DNA from: Kiritimatiellia bacterium | GTDB taxonomy: Bacteria; Verrucomicrobiota; Kiritimatiellia; RFP12; UBA1067 | DNA length: 64,000 nt | Direction: 5' to 3' | Assembly (NCBI GenBank): GCA_050949565.1 | Contig: JBMNFY010000004.1 | Coordinates: 32,001 to 96,000, forward strand | Part shown: positions 264 through 23,746 of the stretch, in pieces | How positions within the stretch are numbered: the first letter of the stretch is position 1 | Layout of the letters: the number at the start of each line of letters is the position of its first letter | Notes under the pieces: generated by a model | The model's input: only the letters and a program-made list of their open reading frames with translations | The model's database searches: none | What the model was told of the DNA's origin: nothing | Made by a program: the position numbers and the translations under genes

Positions 264-1958
264 ATGCCGGTTCAGCCGGATGCTTTTGCCGCCCTTGTCC
301 TGAAGAAAACAGGGCTGTTTACCGACTTGCAGCTTGACCATGTTTTGGCGGCTGACCGTTCGGACGGGACGGGTATTACGGGTGTGGTGGTGCGCCTGGG
401 GCTGGCGCGTGAGGATGAGTTCCTGCGCAAGATCGGCGAGGTGCTGGGCTTTACCTATACCGAATTGACGCAGACGCGGCCGACGGATGAGGCGCTGACC
501 AAGCTGCCGGCGCGTGCGGTGTACCAGTACAATGTGTTGCCGCTGACCGTCGATAACGGTGTGCTGACGGTGGTGACCTGTGATCCCTTCGATACCGGCA
601 TGACGGATGGCCTGCGGCTGGCGGCGGGTTGCCCGGTGCGGGTGACGCTTAGTCCGCGCGAAGAGATCAACAAGGCGGTTCAAAAATATTACGGCGTGGG
701 TGCCGACGCGATCGAGAAGATGATCGAGGATGGCCGCTATGCGGTGGACGCTGATCTGGCCTCGATCTCCAAGATCGATGTGAATGAGATGGGGGCCGAG
801 GCCTCGATCGTGCGCTTTGTGAACCAGATCATCGCCGAGGCGGACCGCCAGGGCGCGACCGATATCCACGTCGAGCCGATGGAGGACGAACTGCGGATCC
901 GTTACCGGATCGACGGCATGTTGCACAAGGTGGATGTGCCGCCGCAACTCAACCGGCTCAAGGCGGCGATCATTTCGCGTATCAAGGTCATGGCGAACTT
1001 GGATATCGCGGAGAAGCGGTTGCCGATGGACGGTCGTATCGGCGTCAGGCTCAACAATGACGACATCGACATCCGTGTCTCTACGATGCCGACGGCCTAC
1101 GGCGAGTCGATCTCGCTGCGTCTGTTGCAGAAGGCGGGCAACTTCGTTAAGCTGAGCGATCTTGGCTTTAATGATTTCGACTACGGCCATGTGGTCAAGT
1201 TGATCAACCGCCCCAATGGGATTTTTCTGGTGACCGGTCCCACCGGGTCGGGTAAGTCGACCTCGCTCTACGCCTTTCTGCACGAGATCAACAAGATGCA
1301 GGTGCGTATTCTGACGGTCGAAGACCCGATCGAGTACGAGATGCCGGGCATCAACCAAGTGTTGGTGCGGCAGGACATCGGGCTGACTTTCGCGCGTGCG
1401 CTGCGCGCCTTCCTGCGTCAGGATCCGGACATCATCATGGTCGGTGAAATTCGTGACGGCGAGACGGCGGAGATTGCGATCAACGCTTCGCTCACGGGCC
1501 ATCTGGTGTTCAGCACACTGCACACCAACGACGCGGCGGGTGCCTTCGCGCGCTTGATCGATATGGGCGCGGAGCCGTTTCTGGTGGCGTCAGCGGTGGC
1601 TGGCGTGATGGCGCAGCGCTTGGTGCGGCGGCTCTGCCTGAAGTGCCGTCGCGAGATTCCGCTGGATACGAAGTGGTATGATCTGTCGTATCCGCCGGCG
1701 AAGCAGACCGTCTGCGTGTCTGATGGGTGTGAGGCATGCACCAAGACCGGATATCGCGGACGTGGTGGACTCTTCGAGTTGCTGGTGGTCACGGAGGATA
1801 TCGAATCGGCGATCATCGGGCGCCAGTCTTCGAGCGAAATCCGCGAAATCGCGCTCACGCACGGCATGAAGACGCTGCGCGAGGACGGCTGGGCCAAGGT
1901 CTTCAGCGGCATGACGTCGGTGGAGGAGATCATCCGCGTGACGGAAGACGTGGCGTGA
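264..1958 (+). CDS. gspE: Type II secretion ATPase GspE/PilB family
   Basis: Walker A GPTGSGKS, TVEDPIEY, LRQDPDIIMVGEIRD, TGHLVFSTLHTN, tetracysteine CLKC/CEAC. Confidence 0.95.
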   Translation: MPVQPDAFAALVLKKTGLFTDLQLDHVLAADRSDGTGITGVVVRLGLAREDEFLRKIGEVLGFTYTELTQTRPTDEALTKLPARAVYQYNVLPLTVDNGVLTVVTCDPFDTGMTDGLRLAAGCPVRVTLSPREEINKAVQKYYGVGADAIEKMIEDGRYAVDADLASISKIDVNEMGAEASIVRFVNQIIAEADRQGATDIHVEPMEDELRIRYRIDGMLHKVDVPPQLNRLKAAIISRIKVMANLDIAEKRLPMDGRIGVRLNNDDIDIRVSTMPTAYGESISLRLLQKAGNFVKLSDLGFNDFDYGHVVKLINRPNGIFLVTGPTGSGKSTSLYAFLHEINKMQVRILTVEDPIEYEMPGINQVLVRQDIGLTFARALRAFLRQDPDIIMVGEIRDGETAEIAINASLTGHLVFSTLHTNDAAGAFARLIDMGAEPFLVASAVAGVMAQRLVRRLCLKCRREIPLDTKWYDLSYPPAKQTVCVSDGCEACTKTGYRGRGGLFELLVVTEDIESAIIGRQSSSEIREIALTHGMKTLREDGWAKVFSGMTSVEEIIRVTEDVA

Positions 1959-1966
1959 GGAGTGAG

Positions 1967-2043
1967 AATTTAGGAGTTAGGATTTAGGAGTTAGGAGTTG
2001 AGATGGGGCGGTTCCCAAAATTCCTAAATCCTAAATCCTAACT
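1967..2043. repeat. Inverted pair of heptamer arrays (TTTAGGA/GTTAGGA ... TCCTAAA) between gspE and gspF
   Basis: aatttaggagttaggatttaggagttaggagtt ... aattcctaaatcctaaatcctaact. Confidence 0.9.
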
Positions 2044-2059
2044 GACAGAGACTGGGTGC

Positions 2060-3307
2060 ATGGCGAATTTTTCTTACAAAGCGTTGACGAAAGACGGCCG
2101 CAAGGTCGAGGGTGTGCTGGAGGCGGCTGACCGCCGCGCCGCGCTGGCGGCGGTTGAAAAGCTGGGGCACACGCCGATTTCTGTGGTCGAGACCCGGAGC
2201 AAGCAGGCCAAGGCCAAGGGCACGCCGTTTTGGAAGCTCAAGATCGGCGGCGGCAAGGTGCGTATGAAGGCCACCGAAGTGCTACTCTTCACGTCGGAGC
2301 TGAGCGACCTGCTGGAGGCCGGCATGACGCTGGGCGCGGCGCTGAACTGTCTTGCCAATCAGGGTGAAGAGGATTCGGCGCAGAGCCAGATCGCCGGCGA
2401 CCTGCGCGACCGCATCATTCGCGGTGAGCAACTTTCGGACGCTGTGACGGCGCACCCCGACACCTTCCCGCCGCTTTACGGCAACATGATCCGGGCCGGC
2501 GAGGCGTCGGGCGCGATGATCGAGGTGCTGCGTCGTCTGGTGGAGCACTACGAGCGCAATGAGAGCATGCGTTCCAAGATCACTTCGGCGATGACCTACC
2601 CGATCGTGGTGTTGATCTTCGGGGTGGTCACGGTGATTTTCGCGATGGTCAAGGTGATCCCGCAGTTCGCCAAGATTTTCGAGGGTATGGGCACCACCCT
2701 GCCGTTGCCGACGCGCATTCTGGTGGGCACGAGCGATTTCGTCGTCAAGTACGGTGTTTTTCTGGCGGTGGCGATCGGCATAGGGGTGGTGATGTTCCGG
2801 CGTTATCTGAAGACCGATACCGGGCGCCTTTGGTGGGACGGCCTCAAGCTGAAAGCGCCGTTGATTAAGGGCATCGTGGCCTGCGGTGCGTATTCGAGTT
2901 TGGCCTATACCATGAAAACCCTGCTCGCCAACGGCGTGAATGTCTTGCAGGCGTTACGGATCGCCGAGGAGACTTGCGGCAATGCATTGATCGCCAGTGC
3001 CCTGCGCACCGCGCGTCAGCGCGTGACGGACGGCACCTCCATTTCCGGACCGCTGGCTACCAGCAAGGTGTTTCCCAAGATGATGACCGACATGTTGGCT
3101 GTCGGCGAGCAATCGGGCGACATGCCCTCGTCGTTGGGGCATATCGGGCGGCGGTACGAGAATGAGATGGACCGTAACATCAAGATTTTCACCAACGCAC
3201 TGGAACCGATCCTGATCGTGCTGATCGGCGGCGTGGTCGGTTTCGTGGCGGTCAGTATCCTGATGGCGGTCTTTAAGGTCACCTCGTCGCTCAGTCCGGC
3301 GGGCTGA
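2060..3307 (+). CDS. gspF: Type II secretion inner-membrane platform protein GspF/PilC
   Basis: N-terminal FSYKALTKDG, RAGEASG and AVGEQSG motifs, three TM segments, EPILIV. Confidence 0.95.
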   Translation: MANFSYKALTKDGRKVEGVLEAADRRAALAAVEKLGHTPISVVETRSKQAKAKGTPFWKLKIGGGKVRMKATEVLLFTSELSDLLEAGMTLGAALNCLANQGEEDSAQSQIAGDLRDRIIRGEQLSDAVTAHPDTFPPLYGNMIRAGEASGAMIEVLRRLVEHYERNESMRSKITSAMTYPIVVLIFGVVTVIFAMVKVIPQFAKIFEGMGTTLPLPTRILVGTSDFVVKYGVFLAVAIGIGVVMFRRYLKTDTGRLWWDGLKLKAPLIKGIVACGAYSSLAYTMKTLLANGVNVLQALRIAEETCGNALIASALRTARQRVTDGTSISGPLATSKVFPKMMTDMLAVGEQSGDMPSSLGHIGRRYENEMDRNIKIFTNALEPILIVLIGGVVGFVAVSILMAVFKVTSSLSPAG

Positions 3308-3354
3308 GCGGCATTGAGTGGTGCGGTAGGCATGTTCGACAGAACAAACAAAAG

Positions 3355-3509
3355 GAGGCACTTTAAAAAAACCTCGTAGCATGGGCGTCCCGCCCATGAA
3401 CACGGGCAAGATGCCCGTGCCACACCCCTCGTGGCATGGGCGCCCCCGCCCATGGGACACGGGCAAGATGCCCGTGCCACACCTGTGAGCAGGTTTTTGC
3501 GAGAGCCTC
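3355..3509. repeat. MITE-like shell with terminal inverted repeats enclosing two REP doublets (3376-3423, 3431-3480)
   Basis: GTAG/GTGG-catgggcgtcccgcccatg...cacgggcaagatgcccgtg-CCAC twice; ends gaggcac.../...gagagcctc; second copy at 62525-62625. Confidence 0.85.
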
Positions 3510-3526
3510 AGTAAGGAGAAAGCAAA

Positions 3527-3928
3527 ATGAAGAAAGATAGAGACGAAAAACGCAGGCGGAACCGCAGAAGCGGCTTCACGCTGGTGGAACTGCTGCTGGT
3601 GGTCTGCATTCTCGGCATCCTGGCCGCAGTGGTCATCCCGAATGTGATCGGCCATGACGAGGAGGCGCGGCGTCAGGCGACGCGCACGAGCATCGCGGCG
3701 ATCGAGCAGGCGGTGCAGATCTTTGCGATGCGCCATAACGGCAAATTGCCGGATTCGCTGGAAGAGCTGACCGTCGGGACCGATGATGCGCCGGGACTGC
3801 TGAAAGAGGGTGCGCTCGCAGATTCGTGGGGCACTCCGTTCCAGTACACCAAGACCGGCAAGAAGTTCAAGGTCGTCTCGGCTGGGCCGGACGGCGAGAT
3901 CGGCACCGAGGATGATCTCACGAACTAG
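3527..3928 (+). CDS. gspG: Major pseudopilin GspG
   Basis: RRSG|FTLVELL prepilin site; DSWGTPFQY and SAGPDG GspG C-terminal motifs; aaggag RBS. Confidence 0.93.
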   Translation: MKKDRDEKRRRNRRSGFTLVELLLVVCILGILAAVVIPNVIGHDEEARRQATRTSIAAIEQAVQIFAMRHNGKLPDSLEELTVGTDDAPGLLKEGALADSWGTPFQYTKTGKKFKVVSAGPDGEIGTEDDLTN

Positions 3929-4640
3929 GCGCCCCGGCGGCTTCACGCTGGTGGAGTTACTGGTGGTCATGGTGATCATCGGCGTGATGGCGCTGGTGAT
4001 CTTGCCGTCGTTCGGGACGGGTTCAGACATCGCGCGGATCAAGACCGCGTCGCGCGGGGTGATGCAGATGACGCGCTACGCGCGCACCATGGCAGTGCTC
4101 TACCAGACGCCGATGGATCTGGTGATCACGTCGAGCGGAGAATTGCGCGTTGAGCGTCGTGGCGGCGCTTCCGGAGGAGCGGGGGCCGCTACGGAAGGTG
4201 AGGATGCGCAGTCCGAGGCGTGGCGGCCGTCGGCCGAGCGCCAAGAGCTGGACGAACTGGCTACCCCGACCGATGGTGGGGAGGCCGCCGCAGGAGAGGG
4301 TGGGGGGAGCGGCTATGTCATGGCCGATCTCAACGCCTCGAAGCGTTACGAGCAGATCAGGTTTGTTGTGGCGCTTGACGAAGAGGCGCTGGAGTCGGAA
4401 GAGGCCGAGTTGCAGATCGAGGTGGAGGCGGACGAGGAGTCAGAAGACGCGGACGAATCCAACTGGGTTGACTCGGACAGGGAGCGGCCCCGGATGGCGC
4501 GGATCCCGTTCGAGACCAATGGGAGGTGTCTGCCGTTTGTTGTCCAGGTGATGGCTGGCGACGAAGATGCCGTGGATAGGATCACGGTGAAGGTCGACCG
4601 CTTCGGGGTGCCGAGGGTGGTCGATGAGGATGAGCGGTAA
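3912..4640 (+). CDS. gspH: Minor pseudopilin GspH-like
   Basis: Start reassigned to ATG 3912 (MISRTRRPGG|FTLVELL); acidic insertion; operon position. Confidence 0.75.
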   Translation: MISRTRRPGGFTLVELLVVMVIIGVMALVILPSFGTGSDIARIKTASRGVMQMTRYARTMAVLYQTPMDLVITSSGELRVERRGGASGGAGAATEGEDAQSEAWRPSAERQELDELATPTDGGEAAAGEGGGSGYVMADLNASKRYEQIRFVVALDEEALESEEAELQIEVEADEESEDADESNWVDSDRERPRMARIPFETNGRCLPFVVQVMAGDEDAVDRITVKVDRFGVPRVVDEDER

Positions 4641-5092
4641 TGCGGCGCGACGGATTCACGCTGATTGAGATTTTGCTGGCGACCATGATTCTGGCCGGCG
4701 GGCTATTCAGCCTGATGGTCGGGCTGAGCAATTGTGCCCAGATGATGGTGCTCTCAAAAGAGTATCAGGACGCGCAGTTTGTTTTCAGTCTGGGCGAACG
4801 ATGCTTTCCGATTCCACCGAATGACGAAATCACCGACCCCGAAGAGGACGAGCGGCTGAACATTGATCCGGTCGGCGCGGAAGAGATGATCGACGAACTA
4901 GAGATGGATGTGTCGCGGGAGGTTCGGGAGACTTACAAGGATTTCACTTTCGAGCGGATGGTCGAGGAGAAGGAACTGGCGACCAATGAAGAGGACGATG
5001 GCCTCTATGTGTTGCGCACGCGCATTTCGTGGGGTAGCGGTAAAGAGGGGTACTACGAGGAACTGGTGCGGCTGATCCGCAAAGGGAAGTAG
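4640..5092 (+). CDS. gspI: Minor pseudopilin GspI-like
   Basis: MRRDG|FTLIEILL; TAATG overlap with the upstream gene. Confidence 0.75.
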   Translation: MRRDGFTLIEILLATMILAGGLFSLMVGLSNCAQMMVLSKEYQDAQFVFSLGERCFPIPPNDEITDPEEDERLNIDPVGAEEMIDELEMDVSREVRETYKDFTFERMVEEKELATNEEDDGLYVLRTRISWGSGKEGYYEELVRLIRKGK

Positions 5093-5120
5093 ACAACTCA
5101 CCCAATCAAGAATGAGAGAG

Positions 5121-5477
5121 AAATCGGTTGGTGGCAAGGAGTCATGCTAGTTTAGTGCGTGGTTTGCGTGTGCGCAGTCGGGAGCGCGGGCGTCCCCGCC
5201 CGCAACAGCGTGTCTTGCGGTTTCTGTTTTGTCCGCAGATTTGCGCAGATTGCGCAGATTTTTTCATTTGCCCGCAGGGTGGGAGGGACGAGCGTCTGCT
5301 CGTCCGCGGGCAAGCAGACGCTTGCCCCTCCCGGCGCTCCGCGAGCCCGGATACCGCGCATCGGAATCTCAATCGGCCTTTCACAGAGCGGGCGGGGACG
5401 CCCGCGCTCCCGACTCACTGCTCCCCTTTTCACCAGAAAAGCATGATCTTCGCACATCCCCGTCACCAACCGATCAC
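5121..5477. repeat. Composite nested palindromic element: outer IR, 28-bp perfect inner IR (5176-5203/5388-5415), nested GGAG-REP doublet (5281-5332)
   Basis: Homologous copy at 53467-53722 and right arm at 20665-20712. Confidence 0.85.
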
Positions 5478-6426
5478 GGGCGAATCTTGCGAATCGCATC
5501 TGTGCAACACTGATTGCGGTCGGAGCAGTGGGGGTAAGGTACGGGGTTCCCGTTCGGGGTTTACCCTGCTTGAACTGATCATGGCGATCATGATCCTCGC
5601 GATCATGATGATCCTCTCGTTTTTTTGTTTTGATGCCGTGGTGCAGAGCTGGAACGCAGGCATGGAGATGTCGGACGCTATGTCGCAGGCCGATTATGTG
5701 ATGAATCAGGTTGTGTCCGGGTTGCGCTCCGCCTATTTTTCGCAGAGCGTGCAGAAGGACGATGAGCGCGGTTTTCAGTTTTCCGATGGCGGGGAAGGGC
5801 CGGAGGCGCGCGATTCAATTTCATGGATGAAAGAGGGGCGCGCTTTTGTGGGCGGATTGAAGGCGATTGACGGCAAGGCCGAAATCGCCGACATGCCGCA
5901 CCGCGTGATGCTGTATGTCGAGGACGAGGGACGCGAGGGCGGCGGCGGGTTGATGGCGAAGGCGTGGTCCAGCGATTTTCAGCCGGATGATTTTGATGTG
6001 GAAGAGGACGTCAAGGCCTTCTTGGTTTCGCCGCGCGTGATGGGGATGGACTGCAAAGTGCTGAAGAAGCCGCCGGAGGCGAATGCCAAAGAGATCGAGT
6101 GGGAGGACGAGTGGACCTCCTCCAACGCCCTGCCCTACAAGGTGTCGGTCACGCTCTATCTGCGGCCGCTGAAAGAGCGCGACGATCCGATCGCCGTGAC
6201 GCGCGACATCGAACTGCCGGTCTGGGATATCTCGCAGAATCCCGTTCGGAGCGGGGCGGCGTCGAATGAGAAGATCCCAGCGCGTTCGCCGCGCACCCAG
6301 TCTGGAACAGGGGCCGGCAGGGCCCCGCAGCCGGGCACGCCCGGTAGAGGGCCGGGCATGGATGGCATGCCGCAGCGGCAACCGATTGCGCCGGGCGGAC
6401 GTCCGCCGATGGGGGGGCCGCCATGA
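5443..6426 (+). CDS. gspJ: Minor pseudopilin GspJ-like; start uncertain (ATG 5443, or TTG 5128/GTG 5131), all candidates lie within the repeat
   Basis: RSG|FTLLELIMAIMIL at 5551-5600; LPYKVSVTL motif; Pro/Gly-rich tail. Confidence 0.75.
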   Translation: MIFAHPRHQPITGESCESHLCNTDCGRSSGGKVRGSRSGFTLLELIMAIMILAIMMILSFFCFDAVVQSWNAGMEMSDAMSQADYVMNQVVSGLRSAYFSQSVQKDDERGFQFSDGGEGPEARDSISWMKEGRAFVGGLKAIDGKAEIADMPHRVMLYVEDEGREGGGGLMAKAWSSDFQPDDFDVEEDVKAFLVSPRVMGMDCKVLKKPPEANAKEIEWEDEWTSSNALPYKVSVTLYLRPLKERDDPIAVTRDIELPVWDISQNPVRSGAASNEKIPARSPRTQSGTGAGRAPQPGTPGRGPGMDGMPQRQPIAPGGRPPMGGPP

Positions 6427-7874
6427 CGTTTTTAGGTTTCGGGTTTCGGGTTTCTGGTTTCAGTCGCACCGTTCGCGCGATTCACGCTGGCTTGCCGCAC
6501 ACGTTCATAGCGGAGCGGTTCGCGTACACGTACACGAAATACGGGCGGGGCACCGATTTCGATAGCGATACCGATTTCGATAGCGATTGTTTCGCCTGCC
6601 CGGTGCTAGATTTGGAGTGCGGCGGCAAGCGGTATTCCGCGCGACGCCGCTTTGGCGCGGACGGGCCGGAAAGCGGTGCCGCGACCCGCGCACAGCGCGG
6701 CTCTTGTCACCGCACTCCAAAATGCGTCGGACTCCCTTTTCACCGGAAAGATAAGGAGAGCGGCTCGGCGCTGATTATCGCGCTCTGGACGATCGCGCTA
6801 CTGTCATTGCTGGTTATGTCGTTTGCGCTGGACGCCATGCTGGAGGGCAAGATCAATGTTTACGTTCGGCAGCGGCGTCAGGTGGATTATTTGACACAGT
6901 CGGGCATTTCAATCGCCGAGATGCTGTTGCTGACCTACAAGAATGCGACGCCCGCCTCCACGTCGCCCACGACAGCCACAGGGGCGTCTTCGCAACAGAC
7001 GGCCGCAGGCGGGGATGAGGATGACAAGTGGTTGCAGGCCAAGCTTGACCTGCAGCACGGTTCCGCCAAGGTGAATGCATACGCTATTGAGCCGGACAAA
7101 CCCGAAAATGGCGTGGTGACGGTTGAGATCACCTCGGCTGACGCCAATAAGTGGCCGATCAATCTGCTGGTCAAAGGGGATATCGCCGACCAGATTTGGG
7201 AAAACATTCTGAATGTTATCGGGTTGCCGATGGAGTATCAGGAAGAGGTGGTCGATAGTTGGTATGACTGGCTGGACGCTGACAGCACCATCACCGGACG
7301 GAGCGGCGCCGAAGATGAGTATTACAACGATCTCGACAAGCCGTATAAAGTGCGGAACGGCCCGATCTCCTCGGTCGCCGAGTTGGAAATGATCAGGGGC
7401 ATCCGTGATCGACCCGCTATTTTCAGCGGCGGCGTCTTGAACCCCGAGGAGAAGAATAAGAAGGCGCAGGTCCGTATCCAATTTGGGCTTAAGGCTTTTT
7501 TTGACATCTATGGGGAAACTGTTAAGATCAATGTCAATTCCGCTGAGCTAGAGGTGTTGTTGACAGTGCCGGGCATCGATGGCGACAGTTTGTTGGCGAA
7601 TGCGATCATAGAAGAGCGGAGGACTGGCGCCAACCGGACTACATCAGGAGATGCGTCGGCCGAAAGCCTGTTGTTTAAAGACTGGAACGATCTGAACACG
7701 CGCATTCCCGGCGGTGTCCCGAGCGAGGCGGAGCCTTTTTTGGCTTACGCGCCTCAGAAGTATTTTGAAATCGCGGTGACGGGCGAGGCGGGAGGAATCT
7801 CGCACCAGATCAAGGCAGTGGCGATTGTCGAGGGCGACCGGGTGCGTTATCTGCGCTGGCGTGAAGATCCGTAG
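6423..7874 (+). CDS. gspK: Minor pseudopilin GspK with a 114-aa repeat-derived leader
   Basis: KESG|SALIIALW, DWLDAD, GAEDEYY, RNGPISSVAELEMIRG, ININSA-like motif, LRWRE end; ATGA overlap with the gspJ stop. Confidence 0.9.
   Translation: MTFLGFGFRVSGFSRTVRAIHAGLPHTFIAERFAYTYTKYGRGTDFDSDTDFDSDCFACPVLDLECGGKRYSARRRFGADGPESGAATRAQRGSCHRTPKCVGLPFHRKDKESGSALIIALWTIALLSLLVMSFALDAMLEGKINVYVRQRRQVDYLTQSGISIAEMLLLTYKNATPASTSPTTATGASSQQTAAGGDEDDKWLQAKLDLQHGSAKVNAYAIEPDKPENGVVTVEITSADANKWPINLLVKGDIADQIWENILNVIGLPMEYQEEVVDSWYDWLDADSTITGRSGAEDEYYNDLDKPYKVRNGPISSVAELEMIRGIRDRPAIFSGGVLNPEEKNKKAQVRIQFGLKAFFDIYGETVKINVNSAELEVLLTVPGIDGDSLLANAIIEERRTGANRTTSGDASAESLLFKDWNDLNTRIPGGVPSEAEPFLAYAPQKYFEIAVTGEAGGISHQIKAVAIVEGDRVRYLRWREDP
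6611..6721. repeat. TGGAGTGCGG...CCGCACTCCA REP-like palindromic doublet inside the gspK leader
   Basis: 6670-6719 is identical over 50 nt to 53359-53408. Confidence 0.9.
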
Positions 7875-7890
7875 GGAAGCGCATGTTGAT

Positions 7891-9312
7891 ATGACGAAGA
7901 GCGATTTGATAGCGTTGTTGGCGGAAGGCGGCGTGCTGCGGGGCGTGAAATTCGCCCCGCGCGGACGTGACGGCTGGACGCGTATCGGCGGAGGGGTCTG
8001 GCCGCTGGAGACGCCCGATGCCGAAGTGGCGGCTGACGAAACCGAGGTCGACGCGACCGCGCCCCTTGTGGTTGCGGACGAGACCGTGGTCGAGAGCGAT
8101 AAGCCGCTGACGCGGGCGTTGGTGGCGGCCCGTTCGGCGTTGGGGGCGCGTGACATCGTGTTGGCGCTGCCGCTTTCTCAGGTGTTGGTGCGTGTCTTCA
8201 AGATGCCGCTGGAGGTTCGTGACGACGTGGCGGATGCCGTGACGTTGCAGATGGACAAGCTCTCCCCCTTCCCCGGTGAGGAGTTGGCGGTCGGCTGCGA
8301 AATCCTGAGTGAAACCGAGTCGCATCTTTGGGTGTTTGCCGCTGCTCTGCCGGCTGCGGTTTTCGAAGAGTTGGGCGCGGCGTTGGACGAGGCACGCTTG
8401 CAGGCGGTGCGCACGGACGTCGCCGTGCTGGGCTGGCTGCGATCACTGAGCGGTCCCTGCCAACTGATGCGCCCCGGTCGGCGCGTGGTGTTGATGGATC
8501 CGGACGGTTCGTGGGATTTGGCGGTGCTGGATCACGGTGTGCCGGTTTTGGCGCGCGGTCTGGGCGGGGCTGCATCCGTTGAAGATGTGATCCGGGAGTT
8601 GACCCTCTCCCTGTTGAATGCCGAAATGGAGGCCGGTGGCGGCACGGTGGCTGAGGTGTTGGTGGTCTCGCAGCAAGCGCCGGACCGGACGCTCGTCGAA
8701 AAGCTGCGTGACTTGACCGGTGCCGAAGTCCGGCATGTGGTGCCGCCGACGCCGGACGGCGGGGTCGAGGGCGTGGCGCTGCGTGCCGGCGAGGGCGCTG
8801 CGTTGGACCTCACGCCGCAAGTGTGGCGCGACCAGATCAAGGCGTTGCGCGTCCGCAAGCGGGTCATGACCGGCGTGGGGATTGCGCTGGCGATATGGGC
8901 GGGGCTGATGGGCACGCTCTTCGCCGGGCCGGCGGTTTACAAGCAGCTCACCGCGCAGGTCCGCAAGCACTCGCGCGCGCACGCCAAGGCCTATAGGCAG
9001 GTCTCCGACACGCGCGAGCGCGTCAACCTGATCGAGTCCTACACCGACCGCTCCCGTTCGTCGCTGGAGATGCTGCGCTTGGTCTCCTCGGTCTTGCCAC
9101 AAGGGGTCACGCTGATCGGATTCACGTATCGGCGCGACGAAGGCGTGAAGGTTTCGGGCGAGGCCGATCAGCCGACGGTGGTTTACGATTTCAAGAATGC
9201 GGTGACCGAAAACCCGCTGTTCGAATCGGTCGGGTTGGTCGGCCCTTCGATCAGCAGGGGCAAGCATAAGTTTGACGTCGACGCAACGTTCAAGGGGAGG
9301 CCTGAGAAATGA
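7891..9312 (+). CDS. gspL: GspL-like (PilM/PilN-like) assembly platform protein
   Basis: Actin-like cytoplasmic region (LSPFP), single TM, PilN-like periplasmic domain (VKVSGEA); operon position; ATG 7891. Confidence 0.7.
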   Translation: MTKSDLIALLAEGGVLRGVKFAPRGRDGWTRIGGGVWPLETPDAEVAADETEVDATAPLVVADETVVESDKPLTRALVAARSALGARDIVLALPLSQVLVRVFKMPLEVRDDVADAVTLQMDKLSPFPGEELAVGCEILSETESHLWVFAAALPAAVFEELGAALDEARLQAVRTDVAVLGWLRSLSGPCQLMRPGRRVVLMDPDGSWDLAVLDHGVPVLARGLGGAASVEDVIRELTLSLLNAEMEAGGGTVAEVLVVSQQAPDRTLVEKLRDLTGAEVRHVVPPTPDGGVEGVALRAGEGAALDLTPQVWRDQIKALRVRKRVMTGVGIALAIWAGLMGTLFAGPAVYKQLTAQVRKHSRAHAKAYRQVSDTRERVNLIESYTDRSRSSLEMLRLVSSVLPQGVTLIGFTYRRDEGVKVSGEADQPTVVYDFKNAVTENPLFESVGLVGPSISRGKHKFDVDATFKGRPEK

Positions 9313-10088
9313 GTACGGTGACCTCCCGCGAGAAGAACATGTTGCTGATAGCCGTGGTGGTGCTGCTGTATGCGGCCGCAGCCCTGAGCTACAAAAAGCA
9401 GATGACGAACTGGAAGGCGGCGGAACGTATCTACCGGTCTGCACAGAAAAAAGTGCAGGAGGAGCGCGCATTGATTGCAGCCCGCGACGAGTGGAGTGCC
9501 CGTTATGCACAGATGCGCGACCTGATGCCGGTGTTCCCGTATGAGCAGGATGTCGATACCTACTGGCTGAATGTCATGGATGCGGCGGCGTCGCGCAACG
9601 GGCTCATGATCGCGCGGCGTCAGGCCAACAAAGAGATTGAGGTCGGCGATGTCTACGAACTGCCGATTGAGTGCAAGGATTGGGAGGGCACGCTTGAGGC
9701 GTTGGTCAAGTTCCTCTATGATTTGCACAAAGAAGGAGCCATGCTGGATGTGCGGCAGCTCTTTATCCGTCCGGCTAACCGGCCGGGCTATCTGAAGGGG
9801 ACCTTCACCCTGTACTGCGCTTACATGCGGGGTGACGATGCCCGTCCGCCCGCCGGAAAGCAAGCCGCTCCGGCTGCGGCGGTGGACGCGGACGCGCCGT
9901 CGTCAGAGGGCGACGCCGGCACGCCAGTCCAAGCGCCGTCTGAGGCGCAGCCGCAGGCAGCCCCCGAGGCGGTGCCCGAGCCTCCTGAGCCTGCGCCGCT
10001 GCCTGAGACCGCGAACACGACGAACACTCCGGCGGCCGCACCGGCCGCCGGGCCAGTGCCTGACGAGCCCGAAGGGAATGTGCCGTAA
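9309..10088 (+). CDS. gspM: GspM/PilO-like protein with Pro/Ala-rich tail
   Basis: TSREKNMLL plus TM, coiled coil, WEGTLEALVKFLY; ATGA overlap. Confidence 0.7.
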   Translation: MSTVTSREKNMLLIAVVVLLYAAAALSYKKQMTNWKAAERIYRSAQKKVQEERALIAARDEWSARYAQMRDLMPVFPYEQDVDTYWLNVMDAAASRNGLMIARRQANKEIEVGDVYELPIECKDWEGTLEALVKFLYDLHKEGAMLDVRQLFIRPANRPGYLKGTFTLYCAYMRGDDARPPAGKQAAPAAAVDADAPSSEGDAGTPVQAPSEAQPQAAPEAVPEPPEPAPLPETANTTNTPAAAPAAGPVPDEPEGNVP

Positions 10089-10118
10089 GCAGACACCACG
10101 TTTTGTGAGGAAACACGT

Positions 10119-13073
10119 ATGAACAACATTTGCAATCATCTGATGAATCTGGGCGCGGTCAGCGTGCTCGTCCTGGGTGTTGCTCTGGCGCAAGACCAGA
10201 CGCCGCAGCCGGCCGCCGTTCCGGTCCCGGCGCAAAATCGCCCGACGCCCGTGACGCGCCGCCCGTTGAATCCCGTGCGTCGGCCGACGGCACCGGGTGC
10301 CGCTGCCACGCCGCCTGCCGCGCCGGCATCGTCGGAGCCGCTTGAGCCCACGCTGGATAAGAGCATGTTGAAAAACAAGAGCACCATGCCGGGGTTGAAG
10401 TATAAAAAGAACCCGATCGAGATCGTGCTGATGGACTACGCGCTGGTGACCGGCAAGACCCTGCTGACATCGCCGGGCGTGCAGCCGCTGCTCAAAAACG
10501 AGATCACGCTTGAGAGCCAGGAGGGAGTGCCGCTGACCCGTGAGGAGTATCTGGACGCGATTGAGTCCGTACTCAGCATGAACGGAATCGTGCTTGAGCC
10601 GTTCGGCGAGAAGTTTCTAAAGGTTCTGCCGCTCAAAACCGTGCGTACCGATGGCATCCGCATCCAGATGGATACGCCAGACGGCGGATATCCTGAAAAG
10701 AGTCAGGTGGTCAGTCAGATGATCCAGCTTAAGGCCATCGCGGTCAGCGAGGCGCAGAAGGCGATCGAAGGCTTCAAACGGCCCGACGGGCTGATCCAGA
10801 CGTTTGAGCGTACCAACAGCCTGCTGGTCACCGACACGCAGGAGAATGTCAACCGTATGCTGGAGATCATCAAGTTCATCGACCAGCCGCTGGTGGCGAC
10901 CGAAGAGGTCCATGTGCGCGTGATCCGTTTTGCCAAGGCTGATGAGATCAAGAAGCGCCTTGAAGAGATTGTCGCAGAGTCGCAAAAGCAGAGTCAGGCC
11001 AAGGAAGAGATCAAGGCCAACACCTCCGGGTCGCCCGGATTTACCAGGACCGCCGGGGCGACCTCGCCGCTGACCGGTCGGCCGCTGCCGCCCGGTCTCT
11101 CGCGCCTGACCGCAGCCGCGCAACAACAGCAGGCGGCTTCCTCGCCCAACGAGATTCTCGAGACCTTGGTAAGCGATGCCGACCGGGGCATGATTCGCGG
11201 CAAGGTACAGATCATCTCGGACGAACGTTCCAATCAGCTCATCATCATCACCCGCAAAGAGAACATGAACTTCTTCGAGCGCATCATCAATGTGCTGGAT
11301 GTCGAAACCGCGCCGGATGTCAAGGTCGAGGTCCAGCGCCTTGAATTCGCCGATGCCGAAGAGGTCTCCACCATGCTGAACGACCTGATTGGCAACGCCT
11401 CGTCTAAGAAGGACGACGCTGCACCGACCGCAGCCGCCAAGAGCGACGCGCCTTCGCGCAGCACAACGCTCGCAGAGGCCGCCGCAGCCCGGACGCGACG
11501 CTCGTCGTCCGCCGCTTCCGGCGCGGGAGACTCTGGAGCCGCCAAGCTCGGCCAGCTCAGTAAAGACAACATCAAAATCTTGGCCGACAAGCGCACCAAC
11601 GCCATTGTCATGATGGGTAGTCCCAGCGACCTGGCTGCGATCAAAGAGATCATCAAAAACATGGACATCCAGCTCTCGCAGGTGCTGATCGAGACCGTGG
11701 TGCTGGAGGTCGAGTTGGGTGACGATCTGAAGACAGGTATGGATTGGGTGATGCGGGGCAAACACACGACGCATGAGCCGATTTACGGCGATCCTGATGA
11801 TCCGACTAAAATCACGGGGTATGCACGCAGAGTCAATCGCAACACGATCTTCAACAACGGCGACCAGATGGGTGGCGGCGGCGGGAGCGGCTCGTCGCTA
11901 CTGGGGGGATTGTTGGGGCTGGGAGCGACAGTGGCAACAAACGCGGCGGATACGGCATCTGGGGTTCTCGGGGCGCGGACGGGGATCAGCTATTTCCTGA
12001 AATCCGACAAGTTGAACATTGCAGCGCTGATCGAAGCGTCAAAATCTGACTCGCGCACCAAAGTGCTTTCCTCGCCAGTATTGATGACCGTGGACAACAA
12101 AGAAGCCACGCTGAAGGCGACCTCCATGCGCTATCTCTACAAAGGCGTACGCTACTCGGGGAGTACGCAATATGGCACCGAAGTGCCGGACTTCGAGCAG
12201 CGCGATATTGGCTTGACCGTTAACATCACGCCGCGGATCAATCCGAGCGGGGCCGTGACACTTACGATTGAGAAAACCTTTGAAACCGTGGGTGCCAATC
12301 AGCAGGTTGGTGAAGAATCCTACCCAACGGTCAACACACGCGAGGTCAAGGCAGATGTCTCGGTTGAGAATATGCAGACTGTGGTGCTGGGTGGTCTGGT
12401 GCAGAATGAGATTAAAACAGAGGAAGTAGGAATCCCCATTCTTAAAGATATCCCTTGGATCGGCAAATACCTTTTTGGGCAAACCTCACATGTTGAAAAC
12501 CGTTCCGAGCTTCTGATTTTTCTGACCCCGTATGTGTTGGACACGCCGAAAGAACTGGAGGCCGAGGCCGCACGGCGGAAAGTTGCTCTTTCGGATGATC
12601 AGCCCTGGATGGATTACGGTTGGTCAAAAAGCAAATTGGCCGATCCTATGCCATTGGCGGAGAGAATACGGCGTACCAAACAAGGCTGGGCCACGGAGGA
12701 TACCAATTACGAGGCCGAGAAAGAATACGAAAAACTGCTGAAGGCACGCAAAGAACAAATAGACAAACGGACAAAGAAGGATGCCGAAAAGGCAATGCGT
12801 CGGGCAGAGGAGGAGAATGACGACGCGACCGAGGCCAAATTGCGGGCAGTGCTGAGCGAGATGCAGGCCAAAAAACGGGCACGCATGGCAGAAGAAGATC
12901 AACGGCCCGTGGGCGAGTCTCCCTCGACTATTACGGTGACGGATTCGACAGAGGTGCTCATGCCCAAGGACATGCCGCTTGAGCAATTGCTTGCTCCTGA
13001 TGCGGCACCGGTATCCCCCAATCAGCAGGACGAAGCGGACGAGCCGAAAAAAGCGTGGTGGAAGCTCTGGTGA
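10119..13073 (+). CDS. gspD: Type II secretion secretin GspD with long C-terminal extension
   Basis: Signal peptide; repeated N-domains (ERTNSLL, DERSNQLII, DKRTNAIV); QVLIE, VVLGGL, GIPILKDIPWIGKYLF, SELLIFLTPYV. Confidence 0.95.
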   Translation: MNNICNHLMNLGAVSVLVLGVALAQDQTPQPAAVPVPAQNRPTPVTRRPLNPVRRPTAPGAAATPPAAPASSEPLEPTLDKSMLKNKSTMPGLKYKKNPIEIVLMDYALVTGKTLLTSPGVQPLLKNEITLESQEGVPLTREEYLDAIESVLSMNGIVLEPFGEKFLKVLPLKTVRTDGIRIQMDTPDGGYPEKSQVVSQMIQLKAIAVSEAQKAIEGFKRPDGLIQTFERTNSLLVTDTQENVNRMLEIIKFIDQPLVATEEVHVRVIRFAKADEIKKRLEEIVAESQKQSQAKEEIKANTSGSPGFTRTAGATSPLTGRPLPPGLSRLTAAAQQQQAASSPNEILETLVSDADRGMIRGKVQIISDERSNQLIIITRKENMNFFERIINVLDVETAPDVKVEVQRLEFADAEEVSTMLNDLIGNASSKKDDAAPTAAAKSDAPSRSTTLAEAAAARTRRSSSAASGAGDSGAAKLGQLSKDNIKILADKRTNAIVMMGSPSDLAAIKEIIKNMDIQLSQVLIETVVLEVELGDDLKTGMDWVMRGKHTTHEPIYGDPDDPTKITGYARRVNRNTIFNNGDQMGGGGGSGSSLLGGLLGLGATVATNAADTASGVLGARTGISYFLKSDKLNIAALIEASKSDSRTKVLSSPVLMTVDNKEATLKATSMRYLYKGVRYSGSTQYGTEVPDFEQRDIGLTVNITPRINPSGAVTLTIEKTFETVGANQQVGEESYPTVNTREVKADVSVENMQTVVLGGLVQNEIKTEEVGIPILKDIPWIGKYLFGQTSHVENRSELLIFLTPYVLDTPKELEAEAARRKVALSDDQPWMDYGWSKSKLADPMPLAERIRRTKQGWATEDTNYEAEKEYEKLLKARKEQIDKRTKKDAEKAMRRAEEENDDATEAKLRAVLSEMQAKKRARMAEEDQRPVGESPSTITVTDSTEVLMPKDMPLEQLLAPDAAPVSPNQQDEADEPKKAWWKLW

Positions 13074-16000
13074 TGGCTGGGTGGTGCTGGGCAGTGCTGG
13101 GTGCGGCCGGCAAGCATGTCTTGGTCGCTATTGTGGACTCGGCGAACTGCTATGCGAGCCGCCATGTCTTGCTTGCTATTGTGGACTCGGCGAACTGTTA
13201 TGCGAGCCGTGCGTTCAAGCGCAATGTCATCGATAACGAAGGCTGGGCGGACTGGCGCGAGGGGAATGCGGAAAGCCTGCTGCTGGTCTGGTGGGACCGT
13301 GCCGAGATCCCTGAGCGGACTTGGTCAGAGACGGCGTTTCTTTTTTCATCGGGCGGGGAGTCAGCTTCGCTCTCCACGCCGCTCGTGGCGGTCTTCTCGC
13401 CCGATGGTATGCTCGCAGTACCGGTGATCGATAATGCGGAAGGCGTACTGCTGGATTTTGACGCATTCACGGAGGCTGTCGATGAGCGTCTTGAGGCGTG
13501 GGCGGATGTGCCGTCCGGTGCGCTGGTCTGGCCGCCCGTGACGCAGGCTTCTGGTCAGCGCGCGCGCTGGTCGCTGGATTACTACGGATCGCGCGAAAAA
13601 GGATTTGCCAAGCAGTGGCCGGTGTTGGTAGCGATTGTCGATTCGGGCGTAGCATCGGCGACAACCGAGGCGTGGGTGCGCGGTGTGTTGATGTCCGAGG
13701 AGTGGCAGGATTGGCTGGACTCCACGAACATCCTGCTGGTCTGGTGGGATCGCGCTAAGATTTCACGGGCGCAGTGGGACAAAGTGGCCTTCCTGTTTGC
13801 GTCTGGCGAGGGCGGCATCGTGTTGCCGCAGATGGTGCTTTTTGATACGAACGGGTTGAAGGTCGATCAGTTTCTCGCAGTCAACAACGGGGATAACAAT
13901 CTGTCGAGTGCCGGTGACTTCATTGATCGGCTGGATGAGGCGATGGAGTGGGACGGCCTCCAGATCGGGCCCGGATGGGTCGGGTTCACGGATCCGGCGC
14001 AGACCGTGTCGGCGACCACCAACGCTGTGACGGTGACGGTGAAACGTTGGGGTGGCGCGAGTGAGGGGGCGCAGACCTTCCGTGTGTTCACGGTGTCGGG
14101 GAGCGAGACGAACGCGGCGGTTGCGGGGATTCACTATAAATCCGTAAACGCTTCGGTGAGTTGGGCCGCTGGGGAGAGCGGCGAGAAAACGGTTATCGTA
14201 CCGCTATTGGACGGCGCCGATGTCATCGTGACCCAGCGCGTGTTTCATGTGAGATTGGAGAAAGGGGCGGGCACTACGGCGAAACTGGGCACGACCAATC
14301 ATACGGTTACGGTCGATTATGCGCCGGGCGTGATCGGCTTCACGACGAACGCATTGACCGTGTATGCCGGAAGCGATTACGCTGAAGTAACGGTGCGGCG
14401 ATCTGGCGGGGTGCTGGGCAAGCAGACAGTCACGCTGAAGACGCATGCCGGAACCGCCGCCGCTTATTTCAAAACGGTGACCACCAATCTCGTCTGGGCG
14501 TCGGGTGAGTTAGGCGATAAGCAGGTGCGGATTCCACTGCAAGGGGATGCGCTGGATTTTGGGGCGCCGCTGACGGGGCAGGTTTTCTACGCGGTGTTGT
14601 CGCCGGCGGCGACCAATATGACAGCCCGGCTCAGTATCACTAATCAGGTGATTACGCTTCAAGGCTCTGCTTCATCTGCAGGCGACTGGAAGTATGATAG
14701 TAGCAACGGCGTGTGGCGCGTAGCCTCAAACACGAGCCAAGCCTCTGCATTGACGTGGGGTGCCCGGGAAGGAGGCTGGCTTACCTTCGCGTGGCACAAG
14801 ATTACTTCTGGCGGCACGCTTGCGGCAGCGTTGCCCGGTGTGGTCACCAACACGGCGGTGACGGATGTGACCAACCGCGTGGCACTGGCGCAGGGAACCA
14901 ACGTTGTGTGGATGCTCACCAACTGCACAGCGACGGTCAAGCTACTACGCTGGGAATCGGCGCAGGTGCAGCTGAGAGCGCCCGCAGACGGTTTCAGCGC
15001 GACAAACAAGATTGTGACGCTTTCTTGGGAGGTGCCGTCCGATAGTGTTGTGACCTCGTATCTGTACTACGCGCAATCACCGGATCCGATGCCGATGCAG
15101 CAACATGTCGGCGTCGCCGTGACCAATCAAGTGTCGTATACCAATGCCACGCCGGGTGCCGTTGAGTTCAAATGGCATGTGGAGATGGATATCCACGGGG
15201 ACTTGCAGACAACCGCACGAGTAGTGGGGCCGACGTGGTCGATCAACTTCCTGAAGCGAAAAGAGGTGTCGGTGGCGACACCCCCACCGGTTGCTGCCAG
15301 TGCTTCGCCGAATATCGTGCTGTATCAATACGTGCCGGCGCGCATCCCGATGGCGGAGCGTCTGAAGGCCGTGCACGGCGCGGCACGCCGCTATACGGCA
15401 AAGGGACTGCCGCGCGGATTGAAAATTGATGCGTCCACCGGCATCATTGCCGGAACGCCGAAGCGTGCGGGCACATTCCGCGCGACGGTCAAAACGACAG
15501 CAGCCGGGGCGGCATCCGCTGTTGAATTGGAGATCGAGGTTCTGCCCTGTCCGGCGTTTGCGCTGGGCGAGTTTCAGGGCGTGGTGCTGGACGAAGCGAG
15601 CCGGGTGCGCGGTGCGCTCGTGCTCAAGGTGTCGAAGAGCGGTGCGCTGTCGGGCAAGCTCGAAAGCGGCGGTCGGCGCCAGTCGCTGCGCGGTGCATGG
15701 GTTGAGGGAGACGAACAGGCGTGGACGGTCAGGCTGTCCGCCGGTCGTGCCGAGGCGATGGCCTTGGCTCTTACCTCCGAGGGTGCTGAGGGCGTGACGG
15801 TCGAGGGCTGGCGGGTACTGGCGCGGCAGGTCGCGTCCCCGCAGGCGGCCCAGCAGGTCGCGGGGGCCTACACGGCGGTGCTGCACGCCGAGGCGGCGGA
15901 CGCCTCCTGCGCACCGGCTGGCTATGGTTTCATGACATACACAGTGGCCTCACGGACAGGCTCGGTGAAGTACGGTGGGGTTTTGGCCGATGGGACGCGC

Positions 16001-16528
16001 GTGAGCGGTTCAGCAAAGATTGTGGCCGGCGACGAGGCAGGCGCGGCACTCTTCCCGCTTTACAAGGGTTTGTACGCGCGGCGCGGCGAGGTCTCGGGCG
16101 TGGTTGCCAGTACGCCGGATGGCAGCGTGGTGTTCGGGCAAGGCGGCTGGGTGAATCCCGGCGGCGGCGGATCACGCCAAGGCTCGCGGGTGTCCTTCGA
16201 TGCCGCGCTTGACGGCGTGGGCGCGCGTTACGCGCAGCCTGCCGACTGGCGTATGCTGGATGGCGCGTGGCTGACTGCGGACGGACGGCCGTTCGCGACG
16301 CTGTCGGCGGCCGGGGGCAAGCTGCTCGCGCAGACTGCCGGGGTCACCTTCTCACTGACGAAGCAGAGCGGGATATTCGCCGGGCGTTTCACAGACGAAA
16401 CCAACACAGCGCGGACATTCAAAGGGGTGTATATGCCTGCCCTGCTGTACGGCGCCGGTTTTTATCTCTGCCCCGACAGCGGGGATGGAGCAACCCCCTG
16501 CTCGCTGCCGGTTGAACTGGAGCAGTGA
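13073..16528 (+). CDS. Large surface/secreted-type protein: two thioredoxin-like repeats, two Calx-beta-like domains, putative Ig domain, C-terminal beta domain
   Basis: TGATG overlap with the gspD stop; duplicated VLVAIVDS...LLVWWDR; GFTDPAQTV..VTVKRWGG and GFTTNALTV..VTVRRSGG; AKGLPRGLKIDASTGIIAGTP. Confidence 0.75.
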   Translation: MAGWCWAVLGAAGKHVLVAIVDSANCYASRHVLLAIVDSANCYASRAFKRNVIDNEGWADWREGNAESLLLVWWDRAEIPERTWSETAFLFSSGGESASLSTPLVAVFSPDGMLAVPVIDNAEGVLLDFDAFTEAVDERLEAWADVPSGALVWPPVTQASGQRARWSLDYYGSREKGFAKQWPVLVAIVDSGVASATTEAWVRGVLMSEEWQDWLDSTNILLVWWDRAKISRAQWDKVAFLFASGEGGIVLPQMVLFDTNGLKVDQFLAVNNGDNNLSSAGDFIDRLDEAMEWDGLQIGPGWVGFTDPAQTVSATTNAVTVTVKRWGGASEGAQTFRVFTVSGSETNAAVAGIHYKSVNASVSWAAGESGEKTVIVPLLDGADVIVTQRVFHVRLEKGAGTTAKLGTTNHTVTVDYAPGVIGFTTNALTVYAGSDYAEVTVRRSGGVLGKQTVTLKTHAGTAAAYFKTVTTNLVWASGELGDKQVRIPLQGDALDFGAPLTGQVFYAVLSPAATNMTARLSITNQVITLQGSASSAGDWKYDSSNGVWRVASNTSQASALTWGAREGGWLTFAWHKITSGGTLAAALPGVVTNTAVTDVTNRVALAQGTNVVWMLTNCTATVKLLRWESAQVQLRAPADGFSATNKIVTLSWEVPSDSVVTSYLYYAQSPDPMPMQQHVGVAVTNQVSYTNATPGAVEFKWHVEMDIHGDLQTTARVVGPTWSINFLKRKEVSVATPPPVAASASPNIVLYQYVPARIPMAERLKAVHGAARRYTAKGLPRGLKIDASTGIIAGTPKRAGTFRATVKTTAAGAASAVELEIEVLPCPAFALGEFQGVVLDEASRVRGALVLKVSKSGALSGKLESGGRRQSLRGAWVEGDEQAWTVRLSAGRAEAMALALTSEGAEGVTVEGWRVLARQVASPQAAQQVAGAYTAVLHAEAADASCAPAGYGFMTYTVASRTGSVKYGGVLADGTRVSGSAKIVAGDEAGAALFPLYKGLYARRGEVSGVVASTPDGSVVFGQGGWVNPGGGGSRQGSRVSFDAALDGVGARYAQPADWRMLDGAWLTADGRPFATLSAAGGKLLAQTAGVTFSLTKQSGIFAGRFTDETNTARTFKGVYMPALLYGAGFYLCPDSGDGATPCSLPVELEQ
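13074..13107 (+). repeat. GCTGGG-N4 decamer array; 34-bp exact direct repeat of 16536-16569
   Basis: tggctgggtggtgctgggcagtgctgggtgcggc at both sites. Confidence 0.9.
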
Positions 16529-20664: not shown

Positions 20665-20712
20665 CAGGTGACAGGGATGTGCGAAGATCGCGCGTTTCTG
20701 GTGAAAAGGAGG
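20665..20712 (-). repeat. Isolated right arm of the 5121/53467 composite element; contains the SD of the next gene
   Basis: Reverse complement ctccttttcaccagaaacgcgcgatcttcgcacatccctgtcac matches 5421-5466 and 53668-53709. Confidence 0.8.
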
Positions 20713-23570: not shown

Positions 23571-23583
23571 GTTCGGCAAATGA

Positions 23584-23727
23584 GTGTCTTCGGGGCAAGG
23601 TGACCCGGCTGTGAGGCTGGGGATTCCTGACCGGCGGTAGAGCCCGCGACTGGCAAGCTGTTCCTGCTTGCCACTGACACGGTTTGATTCCGTGGCCGAC
23701 AGTTAAAGTCTGGATGATAGAAGGCAT
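23584..23727 (+). ncRNA. FMN riboswitch (RFN element)
   Basis: TCTTCGGGGCAAGGTGA..ATTCCTGACCGGCGGTAGAGCCCGCGA..GATTCCGTGGCCGACAGTTAAAGTCTGGATGATAGAAGG, upstream of ribBA. Confidence 0.93.
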
Positions 23728-23746
23728 CTTGGTGCGTATGGCTTTG

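Follow-up and report, generated by a model that had tools for sequence, protein, structure and literature searches.

A 114-residue GspK prepilin leader in a Kiritimatiellia bacterium, most likely built largely from the genome's own mobile repeats

Class III (prepilin) leaders usually have a few to about 30 residues, and the "long" leaders of type IVb prepilins have roughly 15-30 amino acids (aa). Here we analyze a 64,000-nucleotide (nt) stretch of DNA, hereafter the window, from a Kiritimatiellia bacterium (GenBank assembly GCA_050949565.1, contig JBMNFY010000004.1, positions 32,001 to 96,000), in which the pseudopilin gene gspK of a type II secretion system (T2SS) operon most likely begins with a 114-residue leader built largely from the genome's own mobile repeats. 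In the model of prepilin biogenesis given in the accessible text of PMC10191384, the leader lies in the cytoplasm and is cut after a glycine by the prepilin peptidase, and leaders of variable length are already known. Like the class III signal peptides described there, the predicted N-terminus of GspK has a hydrophilic, net-positive leader that ends in Gly and is followed by a hydrophobic helix of ~20 residues, and the genome holds the gene of a bifunctional prepilin peptidase. Unlike class III and type IVb leaders, this one has 114 aa, reaches up to 148 aa in a relative, is derived from repeats and is unconserved within the genus.

Repeats of this kind have been described in coding frames elsewhere. 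As with the Rickettsia palindromic elements (RPEs) and other in-frame inserts of repetitive extragenic palindromes (REPs) or miniature inverted-repeat transposable elements (MITEs), a dispersed palindrome lies here in frame in a conserved gene under selection, with the frame kept in eight length variants, and is presumably translated and tolerated (PMC2229807 and PMC3733652, accessible parts). RPEs occupy surface loops that the mature protein retains, whereas the gspK inserts pile up in a class III leader, a part that is normally short and discarded; they also differ from RPEs in coming from several families and in turning over between close strains. Translation has been shown for some RPE-containing proteins, whereas the gspK leader is known from sequence alone. 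In the Yersinia gene YPO1552, a YPAL/RU-2 MITE likewise takes part in the N-terminal targeting of an exported protein, as a portion of its predicted signal peptide (PMC2229807, accessible part), but that MITE was proposed to create a functional signal, whereas the gspK repeats would be ballast upstream of the cleavage site and helix. The palindrome in gspK resembles REPs and REP doublets forming hairpins (REPINs), the repeats linked with REP-associated tyrosine transposases (RAYTs), in being a short palindromic unit of roughly 60-95 copies that lie mostly outside long open reading frames (ORFs), often as inverted hairpin doublets. Unlike a typical REP or REPIN, the gspK copy lies inside a coding frame. 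A profile search returned seven matches to Y1_Tnp (PF01797) in the genome (best E-value 3.7e-12); RAYT-like Y1_Tnp matches lie at C4:30024-30218, ~2 kb before the window start, and at C8:242562-242891. Full-text searches of open-access papers turned up neither prepilin leaders this long nor any derived from repeats, and nothing on pseudopilins of Kiritimatiellia. As far as those searches show, what is new is the combination of a leader several-fold longer than the long type IVb leaders, several repeat families, and wholesale in-frame replacement within a genus.

The gspK frame is open for 113 codons from ATG 6423 to the site G114|SALIIALW (Table 1). The initial annotation of this DNA had described these codons as a translated mosaic of intergenic repeat families, and most of the elements that it listed were recovered. 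The gspK ATG overlaps the gspJ stop as ATGA (6423-6426), and the GGTTTCG heptamer run is present as 3.9 imperfect units (6435-6461), with similar runs at about eight further places in the genome. The CGATNN hexamer run was found as a period-6, CGATAG-type run of 4.7 copies with 77% matches (6560-6587; Tandem Repeats Finder), together with an exact 18-nt doublet (6552-6587) that has about five related genome sites. What had been called a GTACAC run consists of two copies only (6523-6534), which makes this a weak item. The REP doublet at 6611-6721 was also recovered, and 50 nt of it (6670-6719) are identical to an intergenic copy at 53359-53408 that sits between divergent ORFs, one on the minus strand and one on the plus strand. 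Searched against the whole genome with blastn-short, the left half of the doublet gave 74 matches and the right half 96 (56 and 61, respectively, covering at least 80% of the length), and most of the REP copies fall outside long ORFs: the longest open frame that covers a copy has a median of 184 codons, vs 490 at random sites. A fragment of a third dispersed family, family C (~95 nt, 27 motif matches genome-wide), follows the REP doublet. The mosaic description holds for these segments but not for the whole leader, ~40% of which (6463-6550 and 6588-6608) is non-repetitive and at background copy number in an 11-mer map. The leader has a grand average of hydropathy of -0.56, 18 K/R against 13 D/E residues (net charge +5) and no hydrophobic segment; mean hydropathy over 19 residues peaks at 0.63 in the leader, compared with 2.49 in the helix that follows.

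The open frame in the window alone makes a weak case for translation. When the leader was subjected to mononucleotide shuffling, 483 of 20,000 shuffles (2.4%) were stop-free in frame; the other two frames of the leader contain three stops each, and the REP doublet is stop-free in every forward frame. The corresponding estimates of a frame open by chance in single alleles were 0.004 (L003), 0.030 (L006) and 0.025 (window), and 0.128, 0.126, 0.083 and 0.038 for the others. As the case from the window is weak alone, the answer must come from comparison.

We therefore compared gspJ-gspK junctions from 41 relatives' genomes (39 with a match), 201 family genomes (175 with a match, from which 30 loci plus 20 fetched stretches were taken) and 46 metagenome loci. 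Of the 102 loci processed, 15 were left out (no gspJ, GspK N-terminus missing, or N in the gap), and the 87 analyzed include 74 distinct ones. Three of these, in which the gspJ frame runs past the codon for the glycine at the cleavage site (L016, in the gspK frame; L059 and L061, in another frame), were excluded from the junction counts, leaving 71. The gspK frame was stop-free from the gspJ stop to the glycine codon in 66 of the 71 junctions, and 51 had an in-frame ATG, GTG or TTG on the gspJ stop, with gaps of 8-440 nt. The -1 residue was G in 68 junctions, A in two and R in one. Counted from the overlapping start, leaders ranged from 4 (Met included) to 148 residues. Gaps reach 150 nt or more in 16 distinct junctions, of which 13 were open with an overlapping start; together these 16 contained five stops in 1392 gspK-frame codons, all of them in the three closed loci, and 69 stops in the other two frames.

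The signal was clearest at the genus level (mature protein at least 85% identical), where we observed eight gap lengths (53, 83, 155, 203, 254, 320, 338 and 440 nt). All eight alleles have the ATGA overlap and a length of 2 modulo 3, and they contain no stop in ~610 gspK-frame codons vs 30 stops in ~1220 codons of the other frames. A ninth allele, known from a protein record only (P0003), differs from the window leader by -11 and +4 residues. Leader contents differ completely between alleles of this one genus, and some alleles lack the REPIN (L074, L077). The G005 allele is a short allele of 18 codons with one block of ~130 further codons added in frame. Its long leader (148 aa) and that of G009 (122 aa), which represent two lineages other than that of the window, are each pieced together from repeats dispersed in the respective genome (48 and 63 extra matches). 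Net charge is positive in each of the 18 distinct leaders that reach 40 aa or more, and a transmembrane-like 19-mer occurs in none of them. The overlapping start is preceded at 5-10 nt by a GGAGG-like motif or a G-run, resembling a Shine-Dalgarno (SD) sequence, in 21 of the 22 related loci checked; in the window, this SD-like run sits within the gspJ tail. Hypervariable leaders of frame-preserving length, which the initial annotation had predicted, are thus what the relatives contain. The conserved coupled start, its SD and the stop-free turnover in frame fit translation through the inserts and not an untranslated spacer. From these sequence comparisons, we conclude that the leader repeats are probably translated from ATG 6423.

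In-frame ATG, GTG or TTG codons between the gspJ stop and G114 occur at 6423, 6492, 6603 and 6612 only. Counted from TTG 6612, the closest canonical start, the leader would still have at least 50 aa, and from the sole upstream ATG it would have 114 aa; both lengths exceed what is usual for class III leaders. As had been claimed, no ATG, GTG or TTG lies in frame between the end of the REP and the cleavage site. A non-canonical start just before KESG, the alternative raised at that time, has no candidate codon, since 6723-6761 contains no in-frame ATG, GTG, TTG, CTG, ATT, ATC or ATA. With no canonical in-frame start beyond 6612, any canonical initiation reads through the REPIN. In relatives, the nearest canonical start precedes the glycine codon by 57 codons in L074, 47 in L010, 43 in L008 and 35 in L076, and no SD-like motif was found before the glycine codon in these four loci.

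The protein downstream of the leader is recognizably GspK. It matches T2SSK_1st (PF21687) with an E-value of 2.9e-15 (57.4 bits vs a cut-off of 26.2) and is the sole PF21687 gene that a profile search found in the host assembly (4.66 Mb, 21 contigs, estimated completeness 92%). A phmmer search against the PDB returned XcpX (5vtm_X, E-value 1.3e-4) and GspK (3ci0_K, E-value 4e-3). In an AlphaFold2 model from a 38-sequence alignment (mean predicted local distance difference test score, pLDDT, 68), residues 1-113 have a pLDDT below 50 and the helix starts at residue 115; the top six Foldseek matches are all XcpX or GspK (E-values 3.7e-9 to 2e-6, target-normalized template modeling scores 0.61-0.67). 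Like GspK/XcpX, the minor pseudopilin that forms the tip of the T2SS pseudopilus, the protein has the Pfam family, a fold match to 6utu, 5vtm and 3ci0, the gene order gspI-J-K-L and no Glu at +5; unlike the solved GspK/XcpX proteins, it has an N-terminal extension, and its mature part is only 13-19% identical to them. G114 is invariant in all 38 aligned GspK proteins. A PilD-type protein of 287 aa with A24_N_bact and Peptidase_A24 domains is encoded on another contig, and 15 of the 17 strict prepilin-motif ORFs of the host genome have leaders of 5-20 aa. Compared with the near relative G002, mature gspK differs at a proportion of 0.225 of synonymous sites (pS) and 0.012 of nonsynonymous sites (pN), for a pN/pS of ~0.05, and is under strong purifying selection.

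In the reading that we favor, translation of gspK would begin at ATG 6423, over the gspJ stop and behind the SD-like G-run, and the first 114 residues of pre-GspK would form a hydrophilic, net-positive, unstructured leader encoded by the heptamer run, unique spacer, the 18-nt doublet, the REPIN and the third-family fragment. This leader would stay in the cytoplasm while the hydrophobic helix from S115 enters the membrane, and would be cut off after G114 by the PilD-type prepilin peptidase, whose gene lies elsewhere in the genome. We infer from the established model of prepilin biogenesis that the leader is made, kept in the cytoplasm and removed in this way. Inserts would be accepted as long as they keep the frame, bring no stop and contain no membrane-like segment. 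As gspJ runs directly into gspK and the leader would be thrown away, the stretch encoding it would be the only one in this part of the operon where repeats can land and persist; disposability is a plausible reason for their build-up, making the leader a "safe haven". Should synthesis and removal of the leader be borne out, no known class III leader would come close to it in length, and it would amount to a natural experiment indicating that more than 100 arbitrary hydrophilic residues ahead of the cleavage site can be accommodated by targeting through the signal recognition particle, by membrane insertion and by the prepilin peptidase. The locus would also be a concrete case of mobile repeats surviving inside tightly packed, overlapping operons, and its turnover is fast, with leader alleles differing completely within one genus. 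Gene callers disagree on the starts (one source calls a form with a 53-aa leader, and the G005-type protein record starts at an internal Met), and the leader-length filters of pilin-finding programs would probably miss such genes.

Table 1. Positions of gspK, its predicted leader and associated features in the window.
Feature	Position	Strand	Detail	Basis
gspJ (minor pseudopilin J)	5443..6426	+	ATG 5443; N_methyl at ORF residues 141-163	Pfam
G7 run, SD-like	6411..6417	+	5 nt upstream of the gspK ATG, in the gspJ tail	sequence
gspK ORF	6423..7874	+	483 aa	
ATGA	6423..6426	+	gspK ATG over gspJ TGA stop (translational coupling)	sequence reading
Predicted pre-GspK leader	6423..6764	+	114 codons ending in G114	open frame
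GGTTTCG heptamer run	6435..6461	+	3.9 imperfect units	Tandem Repeats Finder
Exact 18-nt tandem doublet	6552..6587	+	in CGAT-type hexamer run, read as TDFDSDTDFDSD	repeat search
REPIN-like inverted REP doublet	6609..6724	+	inverted arms 6611-6629 and 6703-6721	
Out-of-frame 10-codon ORF	6722..6754	+	ATG 6722 to TAA 6752-6754; same sequence in G002	
Fragment of dispersed repeat family C	6734..6749	+	core CCCTTTTCACCRGAAA	4 matches in window vs 0 expected
AAGGAG	6753..6758	+	codes K-E of KDKESG; possible SD solely for a CTG 6771/ATT 6774 start	
G114 codon	6762..6764	+	-1 residue of predicted prepilin-peptidase site	conservation
Mature GspK	6765..7874	+	alpha1 helix 115-174 and GspK/XcpX globular domain	PF21687

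Several observations weigh against this reading, the first of them concerning where translation starts. The REPIN is stop-free in three forward frames, so its openness is uninformative by itself, and elsewhere in the genome REP copies extend long ORFs in frame on the 5' side, with the start further down. REPs at such positions are often extragenic, according to the accessible part of PMC3733652 and our own survey of the genome, and extensions of this kind are usually dismissed on that ground. In distant relatives of high GC content, chance alone keeps the gspK frame free of stops over 130-400 codons of gspJ. Five of the 71 junctions have stops in the gspK frame. Among the distant loci, the gspK frame of L046 (G048) and of L109 is interrupted by a stop within the gap, beyond which it offers no ATG, GTG or TTG, and the start that overlaps the gspJ stop in L046 does not share the frame of the mature part; these two could be pseudogenes, assembly errors or cases of non-canonical initiation, and to judge from their sequences odd initiation or decay does occur in the gspK family. 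Three further closed-frame loci have a new proximal start. In the window, a perfect AAGGAG precedes an in-frame CTG by 12 nt and an ATT by 15 nt. Long open gspK frames (up to 822 codons) in 20 distant loci were set aside, as they are only an alternative frame over gspJ and not evidence.

The AAGGAG, the REPs at ORF 5' ends, the two distant loci L046 and L109, and the perfect conservation of the REPIN and tail at the DNA level in three lineages (see below) would suit a gene in which 6427-6760 is an untranslated repeat spacer and GspK starts at CTG 6771 or ATT 6774 behind the AAGGAG, leaderless and unprocessed. However, the spacing is long for an SD, and the AAGGAG is private to the window allele: it is missing from nine other long-leader alleles, which have no SD-like motif before the glycine. 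Such a product would lack the invariant G114 and the positive N-terminal flank, with K/R residues after the helix, and under the positive-inside rule its membrane orientation should suffer. A downstream start also leaves the conserved ATGA with its SD and the eight in-frame, stop-free length variants unexplained, and we consider it quite unlikely.

The out-of-frame ATG 6722 suggests another way to obtain a leader of ordinary size. If this were the ancestral start, a +1 shift on the CCC-TTT-T run or a one-base indel would give a 14-aa leader, and with one T skipped the result is a typical short, basic leader ending KDKESG|S. However, G002, L073 and the protein P0003 share the frame structure, so a sequencing error at the T-run near 6737 is unlikely and was rejected as its source. 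No SD precedes 6722, which lies inside the REPIN end (about one REP copy in four includes part of this ATG), and no stimulatory stop or rare codon is present. Preservation of the upstream frame would be unexplained as well, and we regard a frameshifted origin as extremely improbable.

Length and charge raise a second set of doubts about the favored reading, because the accessible text of PMC10191384 describes nothing like a leader this long and the positive charge of the leaders is in part a by-product of GC-rich sequence, which favors Arg. The long pre-GspK could be made from ATG 6423 and its leader kept or poorly removed, as a tolerated or mildly harmful tail or in an allele that is being lost. 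The A or R found at -1 in three of the 71 junctions suggests that processing is perhaps not universal, and KDKESG has an acidic E at -3. Nevertheless, the invariance of G114 in 38 of 38 proteins, the full PilD-type peptidase gene, and the strong purifying selection on the mature part of the only GspK gene all weigh against this alternative. A 114-aa hydrophilic tail should moreover block helix exit and tip packing under the model in the accessible part of PMC10191384. Retention of the leader is therefore very unlikely in our view.

A third difficulty for the favored reading is the divergence pattern. The leader as a whole differs from that of G002 by 3.5%, compared with a pS of 0.225 in the mature part, and the 12 substitutions are spread 4/3/5 over the codon positions. 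The REPIN and tail (6609-6764), however, show no substitution in 156 nt relative to either G002 or L073, against differences of 6-8% in the coding DNA on the flanks and of ~20% in the gspJ tail. Neutral junk of equal age should not look like this. Two readings can be given: either recombination has spread an insertion of recent date, or the RNA is under selection.

Selection on the RNA would fit a version in which the repeats are translated and also regulate, either because the REPIN hairpin throttles translation or stabilizes the mRNA, or because slippage in steps of 7 nt switches secretion. The hairpin is strong (the 195-nt stretch 6596-6790 folds with a minimum free energy of -96.8 kcal/mol, z -3.0), the REPIN and tail are unchanged, and gain or loss of a 7-nt unit would shift the frame. 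However, the heptamer run has only 3.9 imperfect units and is not the long, perfect tract of variable unit number expected for slipped-strand contingency. Near-relative alleles without the REPIN exist (L074, L077), and recent insertion with recombination would also give low divergence. The initial annotation had suggested that hairpins or unit slippage may tune or phase-vary T2SS assembly. G002 and L073 have as many units as the window, and no frame-breaking length change was seen in close relatives or in contigs, although contigs drop rare variants; phase variation was accordingly not borne out, and no support was found for tuning by the hairpin. We give selected regulation only a slim chance. 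The most far-reaching version joins both ideas: PilD would cut REPIN and microsatellite leaders of more than 100 residues with no practical size limit, the leader would be the sole landing pad that the translationally coupled pseudopilin operon offers to mobile repeats, and selection would keep the REPIN unchanged (0/156) as a brake holding GspK at the low level of a tip subunit. This version as a whole is unlikely.

The transcript was looked for in RNA libraries, whose contigs cover 5945-6636 (the gspJ end into the leader) and 6735-7271 with no mismatch and break only at the multi-copy REPIN. Such contigs may contain DNA, and transcript ends, strand and translation are not visible from them, which also counts against the favored reading; their coverage is weak support for the leader. 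In fourteen DNA runs (10 studies) the fraction of sampled words present is 0.99 or higher, but all of these runs are possible sources of the sequence, so they were not counted as independent support. The host is an anaerobic-digester Kiritimatiellia, and relatives of the gspK product found by protein search carry the name Kiritimatiellia in the databases.

The T2SS operon occupies 264-13073 of the window, and Pfam matches give the order GspE, F, G, an N_methyl protein (GspH), I, J, K, a PilM/PilN-like protein (L), a GspM-like protein and secretin D, with gspK placed after gspJ. The gspJ product has a 39-aa leader followed by G|FTLLE, which ranks near the top among 64 distinct gspJ leaders (37 of the 64 are shorter than 10 aa). 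The gspJ ATG and first ~12 codons are a copy of family C in which the family TAA is changed to CAA. In G002 and L074, the gspJ leader is wholly different (28 aa, with TCAACG-type repeats), and homology reaches back to ~12 nt before the glycine codon. The C-terminal tail of gspJ (6260-6422) is low in complexity, rich in G, P and R, and ~20% divergent between near relatives, among which its indels of 3, 3 and 6 nt are in frame. In L016 (G010) and P0063, gspJ and gspK form one frame with no stop between, recorded as a predicted 653-aa GspJ-GspK fusion; either gspK must start internally there or a two-helix fusion is made. Two further observations concern C18 (minus strand, near 7845 and 3553-3596): another prepilin-motif gene has a minimal leader of 34 aa and, separately, an A|FTLIELV gene is preceded in frame by a REP copy, with a start between the two.

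Family C is laid out as a hairpin, then CCCTTTTCACCAGAAA, then a conserved CGCATGATCTTCGCAC, and occurs in the window at 5424-5439, 6734-6749, 20695-20710 (minus strand) and 53669-53684. For 21 of its 27 copies, a same-strand ORF of at least 150 aa lies within 425 nt downstream, which hints at a 5' untranslated region or promoter-type element; no Rfam family matched it. Across the window, Rfam at the gathering score found no family besides a flavin mononucleotide (FMN) riboswitch at 23582-23729 (92 bits) and a tRNA at 59482-59555 (minus strand), and within 5000-7000 there were only sub-threshold hairpin look-alikes. A scan for promoters and terminators found nothing within the gspK leader. The gspI-gspJ spacer (within 5093-5560) holds ~350 nt of repeats, among them a 9-10-nt tandem at 5234-5261 that scores terminator-like. 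Directly 3' of the secretin gene, a 1157-aa ORF (13055-16528) with Calx-beta and He_PIG domains may encode a secreted substrate or surface protein.

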